Sequence record: NC_105512.1
Reading direction: 5' to 3' (one strand)
DNA length: 64,000 nt
Source: Escherichia phage JLBYU43
This document shows positions 43,466 through 50,347 of this stretch, piece after piece. Below the pieces are notes generated by a model. The model did no database searches. It had not been told where the DNA came from and saw only the letters and a program-made list of their open reading frames with translations. The translations under genes and the position numbers were made by a program. Each line of letters opens with the position of its first letter. The first letter of the stretch is position 1.

Positions 43466-46400
43466 TTAAGAATTCCCTAATGTTTTCAGACTAGCACCGT
43501 TCTCATTCAGAGCTAATTCTACTGCGTCTCTTAGAGCACCACTATTACTAGAAGCAAACTCTCTAAAACTTGCAGCATCCATAGCACTAATATTCAAGAT
43601 GATAGGTCTTCCTGAAGTTGAGTTAGATGAGGTTTTTAGCTCATCATTAGGTGTAGCTTTCATAGGAACCATAGGTGTAACTACTTCTGTACCATGCTCA
43701 CCCATTTGATAGCTAACCCCAGGGTACATATTACCGCCCTCAGCACGAGGAACGAAAGAGTTAGCACCACCTATACCTTTATCGCCTCTGATATAAGATA
43801 ATTCACCAGCATTAGCAGACATAGACACATCTATATTCTTCTGACGTTCTCCTAAGGTTAGGTAACTAGTTGTATCCGCTCCAGAATCAGCAATACTTGA
43901 CATACTAGAAGCAGAAGATGCTTGAGCAAGAGCTAAGGCACCCGCCAAACCTGCCGCAACCATTAGTGGAATAGAGAACGGATATGGAACAGCGGTGGCC
44001 GCCTGCATTACAGCTACTGCAGTTTGGATAATAATCTGCTTCTTAGCTGCGTCTTGTTGAATCTTCAACTTTTCAGCTTCTAGTTTCTTCAACTTAGCTT
44101 TAGATGCTTCTGATTTACCATCACGTTTCTGCTCTGCTGCAATAGCCTGATCAATTGCACTAACCTGTTGACTAGTACTATATTGAATCATAGAGGCCAC
44201 AGTCTGCATACCTGCTGCGATAGTGGAAGTAGTGTCTAAAGACCCCATAGAGAACTGAATCATAGCATTGGTTAAATTACCAATGCTTTGAGCTACAGCA
44301 GTTGCTTCGGAATTTAACTCAGATAGTTTAGAAATTGCCTGATCATAAGAAGCCATTCTATTTCCCATATCAGCAAAATCTTTATCTTCTCCAGATAGTC
44401 CAGTTGTAGGGGTGTACACAGCACCTAAAGAAGATCCAACAGAAGCTTGCATCTCCGCATTTCTCTGTGCCCTTAAACCTGCTAGTTGTGCCCTAGTTTC
44501 AGCTATCTTTTTATTATATTCCGCTTGTGCCGCAGCATTACCTAATGTTTTCTGCTTTAAGTCTTCATATAATTTTAGCTGTTCCTGTAAGCGCTCCGCA
44601 TTTCCCATTAATGGTTTAGCAGTAAATTGTCTTTGCTGTTCTTCCTCTCTACCAGCAGCCATTGAAGCAATCTGATCTTGGCGGAATTTCCAGATTTCAC
44701 GTTCAATTTGGGCTTGAGCACGTCTAGACTGCTCCATCTTAGCTTGGCCATTTTCTTGTTTAGAATATAGCTCAGTTTTTTCCCTCTCTAACTGTAGCTC
44801 TAGGTTTAGCTGTGCTAAACGATACTGAGTATCAGTCATAGTACGGTTATTTAAAAGGGCTATTTCTCTATCAACGCCAAGAATTTTATCTGTCTGATCT
44901 TTAACTTTCTTAGCATTCTCGAATCCCTGGGCTTTAGTATTAAGAATTTCTGTCTCTATCTTAGCCACCTGTTTTAATGCCTCAGGATCATTAGGGTTAA
45001 TGGCTAGCAACGCTTTTGCTGCCGTAAGCTGTTCTTGTTGTTGACGTAATAATACTTCTCTAGCTGCTGCCTCAGCCTTAGCCTTATCCTTAGTCTGGGC
45101 GTAAACCTCATCCTTACGTTTAGCTACCTCTAGTGCATTCTGCTCAGTTTTATCCATAGCAGCTGCATACTCTGCTAGACCTTTCTGAGTAGTCTTCATT
45201 TGGTCTAGATTTTGAAAACCTAGATTTAGATTCTTAACTAAAGTATCTGTACTTTGTCCAGTTACTTTAGCAGTATCTTCTACTGCTTTTATAGAACTAG
45301 CTAAGTCACCGGCAGCTTTTTTAGCGTTAGTAATATTACCTGCCGCCATTTTTATATTATTTGCAGTATCACTAGAGCTTTTCTTTAGTTGGTCATAGTT
45401 CTTCTGTATCTCTGCAACAGCTTTGAGATTCTTAGGATCAACTTCGAATACTCCTGTTTCTCCCGGAATAGCAGTGGCAGCATACTTCATATTAGCTCCT
45501 AACTGCTTAGCTAGATTGCCATTACGTAGCAACGCCTCTCCAGTATCCTGCACTGCTTGTTTTAGAATCTTCTCAGTTTGAGCGCGTTCTTCTATTTCTT
45601 GGTTTTGACGAGCCAATTCATTAGTAAGTTGTACTACTAACTTATTACTTTCATCACCACCAATACCAAAAGCAGTCAATGCGTTGGCGAAAGGAGCAGT
45701 AGCCGCTTGTTTTGCTTTAAGATCATCTAACTGCTGTTTAATCTCCTGAGCTTTCTTAATACGAGCGTCACTTTCCTTAAGGTATGTATCTAGATCTTCT
45801 TGAGCCCCTACAGCATTCTCTATGAGAGCCGTAACATTTTCAGTAGGAGTGGTTTTAGCAGATGCACTACGTGCCATCGCAGAAACCCTCATCTGGGAAG
45901 ATTTAGTTTGGTACAAGAAAGTATTGATAGTATCAATAACTGGAGTTAAGTATGTTGCAGCACTTTGCTGTAGGCTTCTTAGGGCAGAGTTGGCGTTAGT
46001 AGCAAATTGTTCCCAAGAAGTTGCTCTAAGAGCATCATCTAGGTATCCAAATCTACGAGTAGACTCTGCAATAACTTCATTTGCGTACGCCTGTTGTCTC
46101 TGATATGTAGTTAAGCTATCCACAGTATATTTAATACCTGTACTAGTAGCATTTAACTGTTTAACGTAGTTTGCATACGCATCGTTAAGACGAATAGTAA
46201 CACCAAGTTCATCCAGAAGTTCAATTTCTTGTTTTGATACACCCTTAATTACACGGTTAAGTGCATCAGTCATATCAACACCAAGAACAGCGGCAGCACG
46301 ACGAGCTACTAAACCAAACTGCTCTAATTGCTCACTGTCAAATCCGTAGGCTGAAGCAGTAGATGCTTGACGCATAGCTTCTTCAAAGGATACAGCACCA

Positions 46401-47125
46401 TTAGTAGCATTTTGTAGTGCTAGAGCTAGTGTCTGTACTGGTGTACCTGTCATAGAGCCAACAATAGTACCAAACTGTTCCAATCTGTTTAGCTGATCAC
46501 CTACTTTTAGATTATCAAGAGCAGACTGAAGAACGAATATATTAGAAGCAAAAGCTGCGTATAATATAGGTAAACCACCACCTACTTTAGCCATTGCTGC
46601 GAAGTCACGAGTAGCTCCGCGTGCTGAACCAGAAGTATTACCAATAGCTCTAGAAGCTCTACTTGCGGCACCTGCTGTGTTATTAAATCCTTTAGCAGTA
46701 CCACCTAAAACCCTGTTAGTATCGTATAATCTATCATAGACTTTTTCTGTTGCAGCTGCAACATCATTACCCATTGCTTTAACAGACCTAGATACTCCAT
46801 TAAATCCAACTTCTAGTTTGTCTGCTACTTCAATCATTGTAATAGCTAAGTCATCCAGCTTAGCACCTATATCATTAATAGATTTAGTAACGCTAAGCAT
46901 ACCTCTACTAGCTTGCATTTTAGTAAGACTTTTTGCTGCTCTATCCGCTGCCCTCTCAATGGAGTAAAGGGTTTTGGGCATTTTACCTAACTGCTCATTT
47001 GTCAGTTCGGAAGCAGCAGCAGCATTTTCCAACGCATCAGATACGTTTTCAATAGACTTTGCAGTACGAGTTGCCCCCTTCTGTTTAACGTCTATTAGTA
47101 ATTCTCGTATTAGCTTATCAGTCAT
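43466..47125 (-). CDS. tail tape measure protein (pb2-like, 1219 aa)
   Basis: long coiled-coil protein, Gly/Ala-rich hydrophobic segment near C-terminus. Confidence 0.85.
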   Translation of the reverse strand: MTDKLIRELLIDVKQKGATRTAKSIENVSDALENAAAASELTNEQLGKMPKTLYSIERAADRAAKSLTKMQASRGMLSVTKSINDIGAKLDDLAITMIEVADKLEVGFNGVSRSVKAMGNDVAAATEKVYDRLYDTNRVLGGTAKGFNNTAGAASRASRAIGNTSGSARGATRDFAAMAKVGGGLPILYAAFASNIFVLQSALDNLKVGDQLNRLEQFGTIVGSMTGTPVQTLALALQNATNGAVSFEEAMRQASTASAYGFDSEQLEQFGLVARRAAAVLGVDMTDALNRVIKGVSKQEIELLDELGVTIRLNDAYANYVKQLNATSTGIKYTVDSLTTYQRQQAYANEVIAESTRRFGYLDDALRATSWEQFATNANSALRSLQQSAATYLTPVIDTINTFLYQTKSSQMRVSAMARSASAKTTPTENVTALIENAVGAQEDLDTYLKESDARIKKAQEIKQQLDDLKAKQAATAPFANALTAFGIGGDESNKLVVQLTNELARQNQEIEERAQTEKILKQAVQDTGEALLRNGNLAKQLGANMKYAATAIPGETGVFEVDPKNLKAVAEIQKNYDQLKKSSSDTANNIKMAAGNITNAKKAAGDLASSIKAVEDTAKVTGQSTDTLVKNLNLGFQNLDQMKTTQKGLAEYAAAMDKTEQNALEVAKRKDEVYAQTKDKAKAEAAAREVLLRQQQEQLTAAKALLAINPNDPEALKQVAKIETEILNTKAQGFENAKKVKDQTDKILGVDREIALLNNRTMTDTQYRLAQLNLELQLEREKTELYSKQENGQAKMEQSRRAQAQIEREIWKFRQDQIASMAAGREEEQQRQFTAKPLMGNAERLQEQLKLYEDLKQKTLGNAAAQAEYNKKIAETRAQLAGLRAQRNAEMQASVGSSLGAVYTPTTGLSGEDKDFADMGNRMASYDQAISKLSELNSEATAVAQSIGNLTNAMIQFSMGSLDTTSTIAAGMQTVASMIQYSTSQQVSAIDQAIAAEQKRDGKSEASKAKLKKLEAEKLKIQQDAAKKQIIIQTAVAVMQAATAVPYPFSIPLMVAAGLAGALALAQASSASSMSSIADSGADTTSYLTLGERQKNIDVSMSANAGELSYIRGDKGIGGANSFVPRAEGGNMYPGVSYQMGEHGTEVVTPMVPMKATPNDELKTSSNSTSGRPIILNISAMDAASFREFASSNSGALRDAVELALNENGASLKTLGNS

Positions 47126-47140
47126 GTTTTATTTTTCCCA

Positions 47141-47173
47141 ATAAAAAAGGCTCTGGGCAAATCACCCAGAGCC
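47141..47173 (-). terminator. Rho-independent terminator
   Basis: stem GGCTCTGGG/CCCAGAGCC then TTTTTTATT on minus strand. Confidence 0.65.
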
Positions 47174-47208: not shown

Positions 47209-47577
47209 TTACCGTGCACGAGATCTAGCATGTGGCTTAACGTTAGGAATCCTTCCGTTTTGCGGTTTATGCTTCTCAGCACGTTTACGTGCAGCATCTA
47301 CAGCTTTAGCATCAAATATATTGATAATGTGTAGAACAAATTCTTTTTCTATAGGATCAGTAATCCCATAAATATCAAATAAAACACCTAGAGCAGCTTT
47401 GTCTTTACCTATAAAGATAGGGAAGTCACCAGGTATGAAACAGTCAATTAGACTATTATAAATATTCATACTAGTAGCTACAATAGGTGGAAAGTCTTCA
47501 AGTTCAACAGGCATGGCCTTAGGATCAGGCTCTATACCCATTGATTCACAAAGTATTAAATATTGTTGTTTAGTCAT
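47209..47577 (-). CDS. putative tail assembly chaperone, T-like ORF
   Basis: immediately upstream of tape measure; no SD; frame open upstream to 47664. Confidence 0.4.
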   Translation of the reverse strand: MTKQQYLILCESMGIEPDPKAMPVELEDFPPIVATSMNIYNSLIDCFIPGDFPIFIGKDKAALGVLFDIYGITDPIEKEFVLHIINIFDAKAVDAARKRAEKHKPQNGRIPNVKPHARSRAR

Positions 47578-47638
47578 TTTAGATGCTGAGCTTTTAATAC
47601 ACTTATCTGCAAAATCAGCAACAGCATCTAGTAATTCT

Positions 47639-48043
47639 TTACGCTTTTGAGCTACGAAAAGTATCTAAGTGGAACACTGTCTGGTTGATCCAAGAATCAA
47701 ACGCAGCAGAGTTCTGCATAAGCATTACAGCATTATCACGACTAAATGGAACTTCAGTAGCAGGATCGGCATCTGTTTCGATCAGCATCAGTTTTTCAAC
47801 GTCACCTACGGTCAAACCAGTCCAACCTTTAATCGCAGCATCAACGAAGGCTTCAATGAACTTATCATCATCCTGTACCTGAATCAAAGTACCATTAACC
47901 CACTCATCACGCTTAGCAGAAGTGATAACTCGTTTAGAAGTAGCACGAGACATATAATTAAGCTCTAGCTTAAAGTTCGGCATACCTGGGTATGAAAGAG
48001 TGACAGTACGAGTTTCAAGGGTAATATCTTTTAAATTGATCAT
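47639..48043 (-). CDS. putative tail assembly chaperone, G-like ORF (134 aa)
   Basis: position between tail tube region and tape measure; ATGA coupling. Confidence 0.45.
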   Translation of the reverse strand: MINLKDITLETRTVTLSYPGMPNFKLELNYMSRATSKRVITSAKRDEWVNGTLIQVQDDDKFIEAFVDAAIKGWTGLTVGDVEKLMLIETDADPATEVPFSRDNAVMLMQNSAAFDSWINQTVFHLDTFRSSKA

Positions 48044-48939
48044 TTCTTTATTTCTCCAAAGAAGTCGATTCTTACCGGATCAGAGTCTGCAGTAGGGATT
48101 ACATCCCATTCAACTCTGTATATATCCGAGAATTGTAGGCGTTTTGTTATACGTGCTGAAGGGAAGTCAATCGAAATATGTTCATTCCGGATGGTTAATG
48201 GTATGTCAGTTTCGGGTTCAATATTATAAAACATATCACCAGCAAATCGCTTAGTGTAGTAAAATGCAATTGTTGCCGAAGCATTCATTTCATTAACATA
48301 AGCTCTCTTATTATTATATATTTTGTTTATGTCAAATACGCTTTTATCTTCCCTCCAAGAACATTGTTGCTGGAATGACATAGAAGCGGATAAAAGAGCT
48401 GGTAAAACATTACTATTGGTGGATACTCTAGGAGGACTATATGATATAACTTCACCCTGAACAATAGAACCAGCAGGATTAAAAGTAGACACCTCAGAGA
48501 ACTTACCAGATTCAATTCCTACGTTTAGGATAGGAACGCTTTTGTCTAGAGAAAAGTCTACAGTAGATACATAGCAATTCTCAAAGTACACACAGTTATT
48601 ATCTTTATTAACTATGTATATATTAAACATTGTTGGCTCAATATTTGTACTATAAAGTGGTAGTAAGAATGTATTACCCTCTCGGTCAAAGCCCATCCAT
48701 TCAAAGAAGTTAGCTTCAGTAAGGGTATTACTAAAATTTATAGCCAGTGATATTGAAGATGGAGTTTGTGCATTAATAATAGAGTCAGCATAGTTGGTTC
48801 TACGATGGATAGTCCTACGAAGAGTTTTAAATTCCTCATAGGACGTATTGATATCATAATTTGACAGGGCATCAAAATGATACGCCCTGCCATCGTATTC
48901 GACAACTATTTTAGACTCTCGCATGAGAGCATAAAACAT
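48040..48939 (-). CDS. tail protein (p140-like, 299 aa)
   Basis: position just downstream of tail tube gene. Confidence 0.45.
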   Translation of the reverse strand: MFYALMRESKIVVEYDGRAYHFDALSNYDINTSYEEFKTLRRTIHRRTNYADSIINAQTPSSISLAINFSNTLTEANFFEWMGFDREGNTFLLPLYSTNIEPTMFNIYIVNKDNNCVYFENCYVSTVDFSLDKSVPILNVGIESGKFSEVSTFNPAGSIVQGEVISYSPPRVSTNSNVLPALLSASMSFQQQCSWREDKSVFDINKIYNNKRAYVNEMNASATIAFYYTKRFAGDMFYNIEPETDIPLTIRNEHISIDFPSARITKRLQFSDIYRVEWDVIPTADSDPVRIDFFGEIKK

Positions 48940-48949
48940 TATTTATTCC

Positions 48950-50347
48950 TTAAGCAGTAATGGTGATAATCTTAGTACCCTTAACACCAGAACCGTCTTT
49001 AGCTAGAGCTTGAACAGTTACTGTACCAGTCTTCGTAGCATCAGCGGATAGCATACCAGTAGTACTGATAGTAGCTGCGGTGCCACTAACGATAGACCAA
49101 GTTACAGTCTTATTAGTAGCTCCAGCAGGTTCAACAGCAACACTCATCTGAAGAGTTTGGCTATTCCGAAGAGTAGCTACATTACCAGCAGAATTAACAG
49201 TAATCTTAGTTACTGCAATGGGTCCTGATTTACCGCCGTCACCAGTTGCAATCAGATTTGCAATAGTAGTTTTGGTGTACTTATTAGAGAAACCAAGGTA
49301 ACCTTCATCACCAGTATCCAGATCAGTAGGAATTGCTTTGAATTCTACAGAAGTACCAAGTACATCGTCAGTCTCAATAGTCGGGATGTTGACGTGAGCT
49401 TGCTTAGCAACTAGAACAGCAGCAGGGCGCTCATCATCATATTCACCACCAAGTACTAGAGCTATTTCGAAACGGTTAACTACTTTCAGGGTCTTAGCTA
49501 GATCTTTGTACAGATCCATAGAACCTAGAGCTTTATCGTTAAGATACGCAGTTAGAGAACCAGTTAATTCGAATGCACCAGTGAATGAACCAATTGGGAT
49601 GTTAACACGGGACATGACGTTAGGAGTCAGATAGGTGATGTTGTTGTTGATTGTAAAGCTACCACCAGTGATCGGAATGTCATATGCCTTACCAGTATCC
49701 ATATCCTTAATTTTGAGGATAGTCAGTTTGTTCTTGATATAAGAACCCTGGATAGTCATGTAAGTTTCATCATCAATACCTACAGTATCAGGATCAAATG
49801 GAGCAGCATCCAGAGGGATCAGCTGGTTACCATTACCTGACCAAGTTACACGACCGATATCTTCAATATCAACGTTTACTTCAGCCTGGTTGATCTGACA
49901 GGAATCAATATAGCTCCATGCTCTATCAGTAAGGATGTAAATATGTAGCATTGCCAGCTCGTGGTATGCGTTATCCTTAAAGTTAACCATGAAGTTAGCT
50001 CCATTAGTGTGAGCACCTGTATCACCATCTAGGTTGATAGGCTTACCACTAGAAAGAGCATGCCACAGCATGTAGTCCGGAACGATCTGCTTACTAGTAG
50101 TCTTATCTAAGTAAGGCAGTATGTAAGTAGAGAAACTCCACTCAGCTGCGTTCAGGGAGTCGTTGAAACGTTTTGAACCACGAGTTGGACGCGGACCAGC
50201 TTCACTAACAGTAATATCGGTTGAGTTACTGTCCTGACCCCAAGAAATATCATCTTGAACTAGAATCTCTTGCGTGTTGGTCTTATTGTGACCAGTCTTA
50301 ACCGTAGACACGAAGATTCGAGTATTACGTAATAGTTGTAAAGACAT
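48950..50347 (-). CDS. major tail tube protein (pb6-like) with C-terminal Ig-like domain
   Basis: 465 aa; C-terminal Big_2-like segment. Confidence 0.75.
   Translation of the reverse strand: MSLQLLRNTRIFVSTVKTGHNKTNTQEILVQDDISWGQDSNSTDITVSEAGPRPTRGSKRFNDSLNAAEWSFSTYILPYLDKTTSKQIVPDYMLWHALSSGKPINLDGDTGAHTNGANFMVNFKDNAYHELAMLHIYILTDRAWSYIDSCQINQAEVNVDIEDIGRVTWSGNGNQLIPLDAAPFDPDTVGIDDETYMTIQGSYIKNKLTILKIKDMDTGKAYDIPITGGSFTINNNITYLTPNVMSRVNIPIGSFTGAFELTGSLTAYLNDKALGSMDLYKDLAKTLKVVNRFEIALVLGGEYDDERPAAVLVAKQAHVNIPTIETDDVLGTSVEFKAIPTDLDTGDEGYLGFSNKYTKTTIANLIATGDGGKSGPIAVTKITVNSAGNVATLRNSQTLQMSVAVEPAGATNKTVTWSIVSGTAATISTTGMLSADATKTGTVTVQALAKDGSGVKGTKIITITA

Follow-up and report, generated by a model that had tools for sequence, protein, structure and literature searches.

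A probable +1 frameshift site, UUU_CGN, joining the two tail assembly chaperone reading frames of Escherichia phage JLBYU43 and its T5-like relatives

In phage lambda the tail assembly chaperones gpG and gpGT are encoded by two small open reading frames (ORFs) placed just before the tape measure gene, the second of which lacks start signals of its own, and the longer product carries the N-terminal part of the shorter one through a −1 shift on a heptamer of the form X_XXY_YYZ, at a G:GT ratio of 30:1 (Levin et al. 1993; Xu et al. 2004, 2013, 2014, all as summarised in PMC5009743). Here we describe a locus of comparable architecture in a 64,000-nucleotide stretch of Escherichia phage JLBYU43 (NC_105512.1; the whole stretch is hereafter called the window), whose relevant features all lie on the minus strand and are given in window coordinates. 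ORF1 (47639..48043; 134 amino acids (aa) from an ATG start, 15.1 kDa) matches the 'tail assembly chaperone' profile phrog_313 (E 3.5e-34) and corresponds to T5.143, whereas ORF2 (47209..47577; 122 aa counted from the ATG at 47577) matches phrog_3914 (E 7e-57) and positions 170-258 of phrog_313, corresponds to T5.142 and represents a T-like domain. Comparison of these sequences with those of related phages leads us to regard it as highly probable that the two form a G/GT-type chaperone pair expressed by programmed +1 ribosomal frameshifting.

The likeness to lambda extends to the sizes of the two products (about 140 and 280 aa in either case) and to the fact that a single PHROG profile covers both ORFs, phrog_32165 in lambda and phrog_313 here. 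Among the features by which Xu et al. (2004) recognise G/GT pairs, in so far as these are summarised in PMC5009743, the locus displays the position, the overlap without initiation signals and the conservation of frame and shift site; the canonical −1 heptamer is missing from the window and is found in four distant homologues (L056, L058, L059 and L060). Unlike in lambda, then, the shift would be +1 rather than −1; the tube gene is separated from the pair by a p140-type gene, and the pair from the tape measure gene by a terminator-like hairpin. No homology to lambda gpG was detected by hhalign with a profile of ORF1 from 14 lineages (probability 0.1%), a profile search of PDB sequences returned chance matches only and no meaningful homologue, and a single-sequence AlphaFold model of ORF1 (mean confidence score, pLDDT, 40.6) was discarded as unusable.

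With regard to the direction of the shift, closer parallels exist among eukaryotic viruses. The +1 cassette of influenza A PA-X, UCC_UUU_CGU (Jagger 2012 and Firth 2012, as relayed in PMC5009743), has UUU in the P site and CGU in the A site and shifts by +1 with re-pairing of tRNA-Phe on UUC, precisely as is proposed here, and the complete nine-base cassette is carried by Pectobacterium phage My1 and by the metagenomic locus L053. The phage site differs in that translation is bacterial, in that the E-site codon is not conserved (ACU here, AAC in many lineages), in that CGU is not rare in this phage, and in that the product would be an assembly chaperone instead of a host shut-off factor. Plant amalgaviruses use UUU_CGN as their +1 frameshifting motif (Nibert, Pyle and Firth 2016, PMC5052127), and there, as here, N varies, the motif is family-wide and it constitutes the sole recognisable signal in the ORF1/ORF2(+1) overlap; these are, however, eukaryotic double-stranded RNA viruses whose fusion is of the capsid and RNA-dependent RNA polymerase type. 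When the locus is set against this cassette, the motif is found in frame within the overlap, ORF2 is found in the +1 frame, and the synonymous positions are found to be held (never UUC, never AGR), whereas a rare or slow A-site codon is lacking. In the literature searched, UUU_CGN was encountered in eukaryotic RNA viruses only.

Bacterial precedents for the individual components are nevertheless at hand. UUU_Y is the likely +1 site of Yersinia YopN-TyeA (PMC5009743), which shares with the event proposed here a tRNA-Phe +1 slip at UUU followed by a pyrimidine, the absence of an adjacent stop codon, an origin in the Enterobacteriaceae and a low-abundance fusion of two genes, but which concerns a type III secretion regulator and for which a conserved CGN requirement is not described. 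Shifts of +1 are also known in tail-module genes, chaperone pairs included, namely SPP1 gp17.1* (PMC9022992), the haloarchaeal HSTV-2 G-T pair (PMC5009743) and the joined tail assembly chaperones in SEA-PHAGES annotations (PMC10885494); these differ in genes, hosts and motifs, and none lies in the Demerecviridae or has a documented UUU_CGN.

ORF1 ends in GAU ACU UUU CGU AGC UCA AAA GCG UAA. Translation of 47209-47667 yields a stop followed by ILFVAQKRKELLDAVADFADKCIKSSASKMTKQQ..., and hence the ORF2 frame is closed by the TAG at 47667-47665 and open from 47664, so that it overlaps ORF1 by eight codons; the interval permitting a shift accordingly spans 47642..47664, from that TAG to the last sense codon before the UAA at 47641-47639. 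Since the codon phase of ORF2 lies one base 3' of that of ORF1, a shift of +1 or −2 is needed, and the −1 frame meets a stop by its fifth codon (GUA AAG AAU UAC UAG). There is no GGAG-, GAGG- or AGGA-like element in the 24 nucleotides (nt) before the ATG at 47577 (AUUAAAAGCUCAGCAUCUAAA) and no ATG, GTG or TTG upstream of it in the ORF2 frame; a GGAG is present upstream of the ORF1 ATG. In all of this the preliminary description of the locus, made from the sequence by itself, is borne out: it had placed ORFs of 134 and 122 aa, with exact lengths and coordinates, in the G/GT position upstream of the tape measure gene, had found ORF2 devoid of a Shine-Dalgarno (SD) sequence and its frame open to 47664 across the last eight codons of ORF1, and had concluded that a fusion requires +1 (or −2) and not −1. 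An open stretch of 29 codons is not in itself significant and could arise by chance; what takes the case beyond chance is the comparative evidence.

The first line of such evidence concerns the 'intergenic spacer' at 47578..47638, which behaves as a coding linker in the +1 frame (KELLDAVADFADKCIKSSASK). We aligned 34 distinct T5-like sequences that are 85-100% identical at the nucleotide level. Counted by codon position (1/2/3), their variable sites number 28/6/90 in the body of ORF1 and 18/12/74 in ORF2, and the 61 nt between the ORF1 stop and the ATG at 47577, read in the +1 phase, give 5/1/15 (chi-square p ~0.001). Thirteen of the 16 variable linker codons vary synonymously only, including switches such as AGC<->TCC/TCT (Ser) and TTA<->CTN (Leu) that need several substitutions. 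This pattern of variation by codon position, together with the synonymous nature of the changes, shows the linker to be protein-coding in the frame of ORF2. Over larger distances, tblastn alignments of the upstream-extended ORF2 begin at residues 1-4 of the extension and reach phages of Klebsiella, Vibrio, Proteus and Providencia at 33-53% identity.

A second line is provided by the joined protein. The predicted GT-like fusion, complement join(47657..48043, 47209..47655), occupies 47209..48043 and would have 277 aa and 31.1 kDa, with the ORF2 part as residues 156-277, the junction ...HLDTF|VAQKRKE... and an AspN peptide, DTFVAQKRKELL, spanning the UUU_C junction. Of the 258 positions of phrog_313, ORF1 alone matches 12-141 and ORF2 alone 170-258, while the predicted fusion aligns as a single collinear stretch, residues 1-262 to positions 12-258 (E 2e-53). 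Moreover, one database record has anticipated the fusion: the RefSeq entry YP_009812293.1 of Salmonella phage Sw2 is a joined coding sequence (CDS) labelled 'Tape Measure Chaperone Frameshift Product', and an exact-sequence look-up returned its product as ...HLDTF|VAQKRKQ..., i.e. with the very junction proposed here. Its 90% cluster has 40 members, and no other of them is 277 aa long.

A third line, which bears on where the shift would take place, is the conservation of UUU_CGN, which forms part of the proposed cassette ACU_UUU_CGU at 47654..47662 (UUU 47659-47657, CGU 47656-47654). We compared 49 Demerecviridae loci, comprising 35 T5-like ones and others from Sugarlandvirus, Pogseptimavirus, Novosibvirus, Priunavirus, Thalassavirus and a further Vibrio group, and every one of them has a +1-frame ORF2 whose open stretch runs through an in-frame UUU_CGN within the permitted interval. 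When My1, three Aeromonas phages and five metagenomic lineages are added to the Demerecviridae lineages, the result holds in 16 of 16 lineages, ORF2 always being +1 and the in-frame UUU_CGN invariant even though the identity of the T domain falls to about 30%. The surroundings vary by comparison: the codon before UUU is ACU, AAC, UCU, UCC, ACC, CGA or ACG, the third base of CGN is not fixed (CGU, CGA and CGC were seen), and the distance from the motif to the stop of frame 0 ranges from 1 to 13 codons. If codons were drawn according to local usage, UUU would be shared by all of 11 lineages with a probability of 1.4e-3 and CGN, as opposed to AGR, with a probability of 1.7e-4. Downstream of UUU, none of the six third positions of frame 0 varies in the T5-like group, as against 90 of 130 (69%) in the body of ORF1. 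In My1 (L065; NC_018837, ~810-830), ORF1 ends in GAC UCC UUU CGU UAA, the nine bases of influenza A PA-X with a stop directly after them.

The UUU-CGN pair is also under-represented in the other genes of the window, with four occurrences for 10.6 expected over all ATG-started ORFs of at least 150 aa (43 ORFs, 17287 codons). The same tally gives 43 UUU-Cnn pairs for 66 expected and 43 UUU-Tnn pairs for 70, with enrichment of the corresponding UUC pairs, a depletion that is consistent with avoidance of +1-prone UUU_Y sites. That the overlap should be conserved in relatives was the test put forward in the preliminary description, and the locus passed it in the 49 Demerecviridae loci and again in the +1 lineages added later; its proposal of a G/GT-type pair joined by a +1 shift thus gains support from the linker constraint, the conserved UUU_CGN, the phrog_313 alignment and the Sw2 record, although it had named no shift site and UUU_C is put forward from the present comparison.

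More distant relatives place the recoding event on the same codons in another direction. Contig look-ups identified a second class of five metagenomic loci in which ORF2 lies in the −1 frame, and the heptamer on the codons that correspond to Asn-Phe is A_AAU_UUU or A_AAU_UUC in four of the five (L056, L058, L059 and L060); L057, the fifth, carries U_UUC. Across 14 lineages the invariant residues of ORF1 end with Phe129, and given that the −1 sites fall on homologous codons, the same Phe codon appears to be the recoding site in both directions. The two directions may also mark two different lineages of tail module. Where the upstream gene is visible in the −1 class (L056 and L058), a gene of 372-375 aa stands directly before ORF1 with no p140-type gene between them, and that of L058 matches Phage_tube_2; the +1-class contigs L053 and L054 have a p140-type gene.

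As to mechanism, most ribosomes would finish ORF1 at its UAA and thereby yield, by standard decoding, the 134-aa G-like protein. A minority would slip with peptidyl-tRNA-Phe (anticodon GAA) on UUU 47659-47657 and CGU in the A site; the tRNA would re-pair on UUC 47658-47656, which replaces a G-U wobble with a Watson-Crick pair, and decoding would resume at GUA 47655-47653 and proceed through the 'spacer' and ORF2 to the end of the 277-aa fusion (...HLDTF-VAQKRKELLDAV...). The first codon after the shift is of the form GNN throughout, being GUA here and GUN, GAR or GCN in other lineages. If the proteins act as they do in lambda, pb2, the tape measure protein, would be coated by the G part common to both products, and the tube protein would be brought in by the rare T extension; the G:GT ratio would be set by the low frequency of shifting. 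UUU_Ynn is notably +1-prone in bacteria even without a stop codon (PMC5009743), and the efficiency of about 1-2% measured at the influenza site (PMC5052127) is in the range of 30:1 and would therefore suit a ratio like that of lambda.

Several observations weigh against this proposal and must be set beside it. No SD-like or purine-rich element precedes UUU that might act as an upstream stimulator, and no significant downstream RNA structure was found in nine lineages (z −1.3 to +1.2). CGU is the commonest Arg codon in the genes of the window (318 of 686), so that codon rarity is an unlikely cause and the idea of a slow A-site codon is not obviously applicable; CGN may, however, favour slippage for reasons other than tRNA supply (PMC5052127). 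Conservation of the Phe-Arg pair could partly reflect constraint on the G protein itself. The ATG at 47577 is invariant in all 34 T5-like sequences, which leaves room for some independent initiation. Nearly all other GenBank records annotate two separate CDSs, and according to a genome announcement no frameshift signal is predicted for the tape measure chaperone of T5 (PMC6256483); beyond this negative remark we found no description of a chaperone frameshift in the T5 family, in a literature that was covered without Zivanovic et al. 2014 on the T5 morphogenesis genes. Lastly, the support for the fusion is comparative and computational throughout.

Among the alternatives, the one that fares best accepts the shift and adds to it a free T-domain protein made from the ATG at 47577 in T5-like phages, so that both routes would operate; we consider it unlikely, though far from negligible. 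The strict conservation of this ATG in the T5-like group speaks for it, as does the presence of Met at this position in four of seven aligned lineages, but Met may be no more than a conserved residue there, and the remaining three lack the ATG and have Ile (Spivey), Leu (PG07) and Phe (Gary). Its replacement in these three lineages, together with the want of an SD sequence, suggests that the ATG is dispensable. In addition, a predicted hairpin in the linker (47580..47630), with a perfect 9-bp stem (UAGAUGCUG / CAGCAUCUA), ends 2 nt before this ATG, would hinder ribosome entry and could thus disfavour independent initiation; its two variable arm positions (TCA/TCG, GCA/GCG) still pair, as G-U, in T5-like relatives, and the fold of the 121-nt segment that contains it is not significant (z = −1.5). 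The same hairpin was ruled out as a frameshift stimulator, being both non-significant and, at ~27 nt from the shift site, too far away.

The same start codon would have to carry the whole of ORF2 expression if only two independent proteins were made, with ribosomes entering ORF2 at the ATG at 47577, whether through weak initiation independent of an SD sequence or by re-initiating once ORF1 has ended at its UAA, and with no fusion at all. This is how almost all database records have it, and it accords with the invariance of the ATG in 34 of 34 T5-like sequences and with the remark on T5 quoted above, yet we judge it improbable: besides depending on a start without an SD sequence, it leaves unexplained the purifying selection in the +1 frame on the 61 nt before the ATG, the conservation of the linker protein at 33-53% identity, the disappearance of the ATG from Spivey, PG07 and Gary, the invariant UUU_CGN, and the canonical −1 heptamers at the same codons elsewhere.

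A fusion might, alternatively, arise from a different event within the overlap, either slippage of tRNA-Lys by +1 at AAA_G (47647-47644) or movement by −2, but to this we would assign a smaller chance still. Re-pairing from AAA to AAG is feasible and the site lies near the UAA, and a −2 shift is not formally separable from +1 by sequence alone. AAA_G is nevertheless missing from most other lineages, and the single variable site of the overlap in the T5-like group, 47650, is informative in this respect: in frame 0 it gives UCA/CCA/GCA (Ser/Pro/Ala), whereas in the +1 frame the codon 47652-47650 becomes GCU/GCC/GCG, all of them Ala. Being synonymous in +1 and non-synonymous in frame 0, this site argues that the +1 frame is already read upstream of AAA_G. 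A −2 move from UUU would in turn land on triplets of the CUU, ACU or AAC type, on which re-pairing is poor. Finally, two phages offer neither alternative: in Vibrio phage 70E37-3 the shift is confined to AAC AAC UUU CGU, and in My1 to AC UCC UUU CGU, and the sole re-pairing available in either is from UUU to UUC. The evidence thus points to UUU_C (47659-47656), rather than to the AAA_G nearer the stop, as the probable site of the +1 shift. The remaining candidate, slippage of RNA polymerase on TTTT (47660-47657) to give a frame-shifted mRNA without any ribosomal event, is scarcely credible despite the four consecutive T of T5-like genomes, for most lineages have only three (AAC TTT CG), the homopolymer runs known to support such slippage are far longer than that, and the +1 frame would require an RNA deletion of 1 nt or an insertion of 2 nt.

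The proposed slip resembles that of Escherichia coli prfB (RF2) in being a +1 P-site slip on an enterobacterial ribosome. The prfB shift depends on two features that this site lacks: an A-site stop codon and, 3 nt upstream, an SD-like sequence. A mechanism of the prfB type was therefore rejected, the A-site codon being CGU, the UAA lying five codons downstream and no purine-rich element preceding UUU.

A wider proposal goes beyond this locus and, in our estimation, stands at about even odds: that UUU_CGN is a universal, intrinsically +1-prone cassette, effective on bacterial ribosomes just as in influenza virus and the amalgaviruses, without the need for a rare A-site codon; that the Demerecviridae, T5 included, set their chaperone ratio by it; and that the −1 heptamer of sister lineages on the same Asn-Phe codons reflects an evolutionary swap of direction with retention of the site. 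Tail assembly and DNA ejection have long been studied with T5 as a model, and nearly all of the ~900 related genomes list the chaperone genes as coding for two small proteins that have no relation to each other. If +1 frameshifting does join the pair, gene annotation would be corrected throughout a large family of phages that finds wide use in phage therapy work, a 31-kDa assembly factor would be predicted for studies of T5 tail assembly, and a genetically tractable E. coli system would become available for the UUU_CGN signal, so far described in eukaryotic RNA viruses only. The standing of CGU as the commonest Arg codon also bears on the open question, raised in PMC5052127, of whether slippage at CGN has causes other than tRNA scarcity, and the +1 and −1 solutions on homologous codons constitute a natural experiment in the evolution of recoding signals.

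The genomic setting of the pair is that of T5. By nucleotide comparison JLBYU43 is a T5-like phage, the region covered by the window sharing 96.6% identity with Escherichia phage BB1 and over 80% with each of 443 T5-like records, and the minus-strand gene order in the window is the T5 order. A pb6-like tube protein gene (48950-50347) is followed by a 299-aa p140-type baseplate tube gene (48040..48939; Pfam PF23779 Baseplate_Tube_p140, E 6.3e-142; T5.144), whose TGA overlaps the ATG of ORF1 (ATGA). The tube gene, p140, the chaperone pair and the tape measure gene thus succeed one another in this order on a single strand. Downstream of ORF2 comes an intrinsic-terminator-like hairpin of 11 bp, with seven G-C pairs and a T tract (47139..47173), located between the pair and the tape measure gene; in the annotations of T5, Spivey and PR1 its equivalent appears as a putative terminator. 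Then follow the pb2-like tape measure gene (1219 aa, 43466..47125 in the ORF list; T5.140 in T5), whose product is presumed to be the client of the chaperones, and the genes for pb9 and pb3. In T5 an 'endonuclease' gene (T5.141), which is missing from the window, is inserted between the terminator-like hairpin and pb2. No phage tRNA genes were found in the window.

Distant relatives were sought by tblastn of GenBank phages and by a full HMMER scan of 1.84 billion cluster representatives followed by contig look-ups. The scan returned 144 relatives of the T domain, the genuine matches all having 67-178 aa, and no natural in-frame fusion of ~270 aa was found among the 144 cluster representatives, which indicates that the split architecture is itself conserved. 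Two seemingly long relatives, P0006 (1455 aa) and P0135 (554 aa), were rejected as repeat-driven matches. A third candidate for a natural fusion, the 94-aa metagenomic protein P0034, was set aside as well: it reads ...HLDTFRSSKRKLLDAVADFADKCIK..., with ORF1 passing into the linker at the AAA_G position one residue short and with a divergent tail, and is most likely a sequencing or assembly error. Single-protein scans of IMG/VR returned near-identical loci only. A word-indexed protein search with the fusion gave no match even though the same collection contains the Sw2 fusion and dozens of relatives of 115-122 aa, so that this null result does not signify absence. ORF1 of the window has no Pfam match in the copy searched, and precomputed Pfam matches to PF27119 (Phage_YdaY) exist for its homologues in L054, L058 and L061.

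One group of relatives shows a further peculiarity of decoding. The T5-like Aeromonas phages of Shenzhenvirus (Akh-2, L038, MK318083; vB_AdhS_TS3, L063, OP820700; AhSzw-1, L064/L066/L067, NC_047950) keep UUU_CGA, and their ORF1 and T domain contain several in-frame stops, all of them TAG and several at identical alignment positions in the three genomes; in these chaperone genes TAA and TGA occur only at the expected gene ends. In the RefSeq record of AhSzw-1, the genes for ribonucleotide reductase, ligase, primase and helicase are broken into fragments, and its genome carries 34 tRNAs, one of which has the anticodon CUA (L067, 15691-15765). These sequences look like those of a cultured T5-like phage genus that reads amber codons as sense genome-wide.

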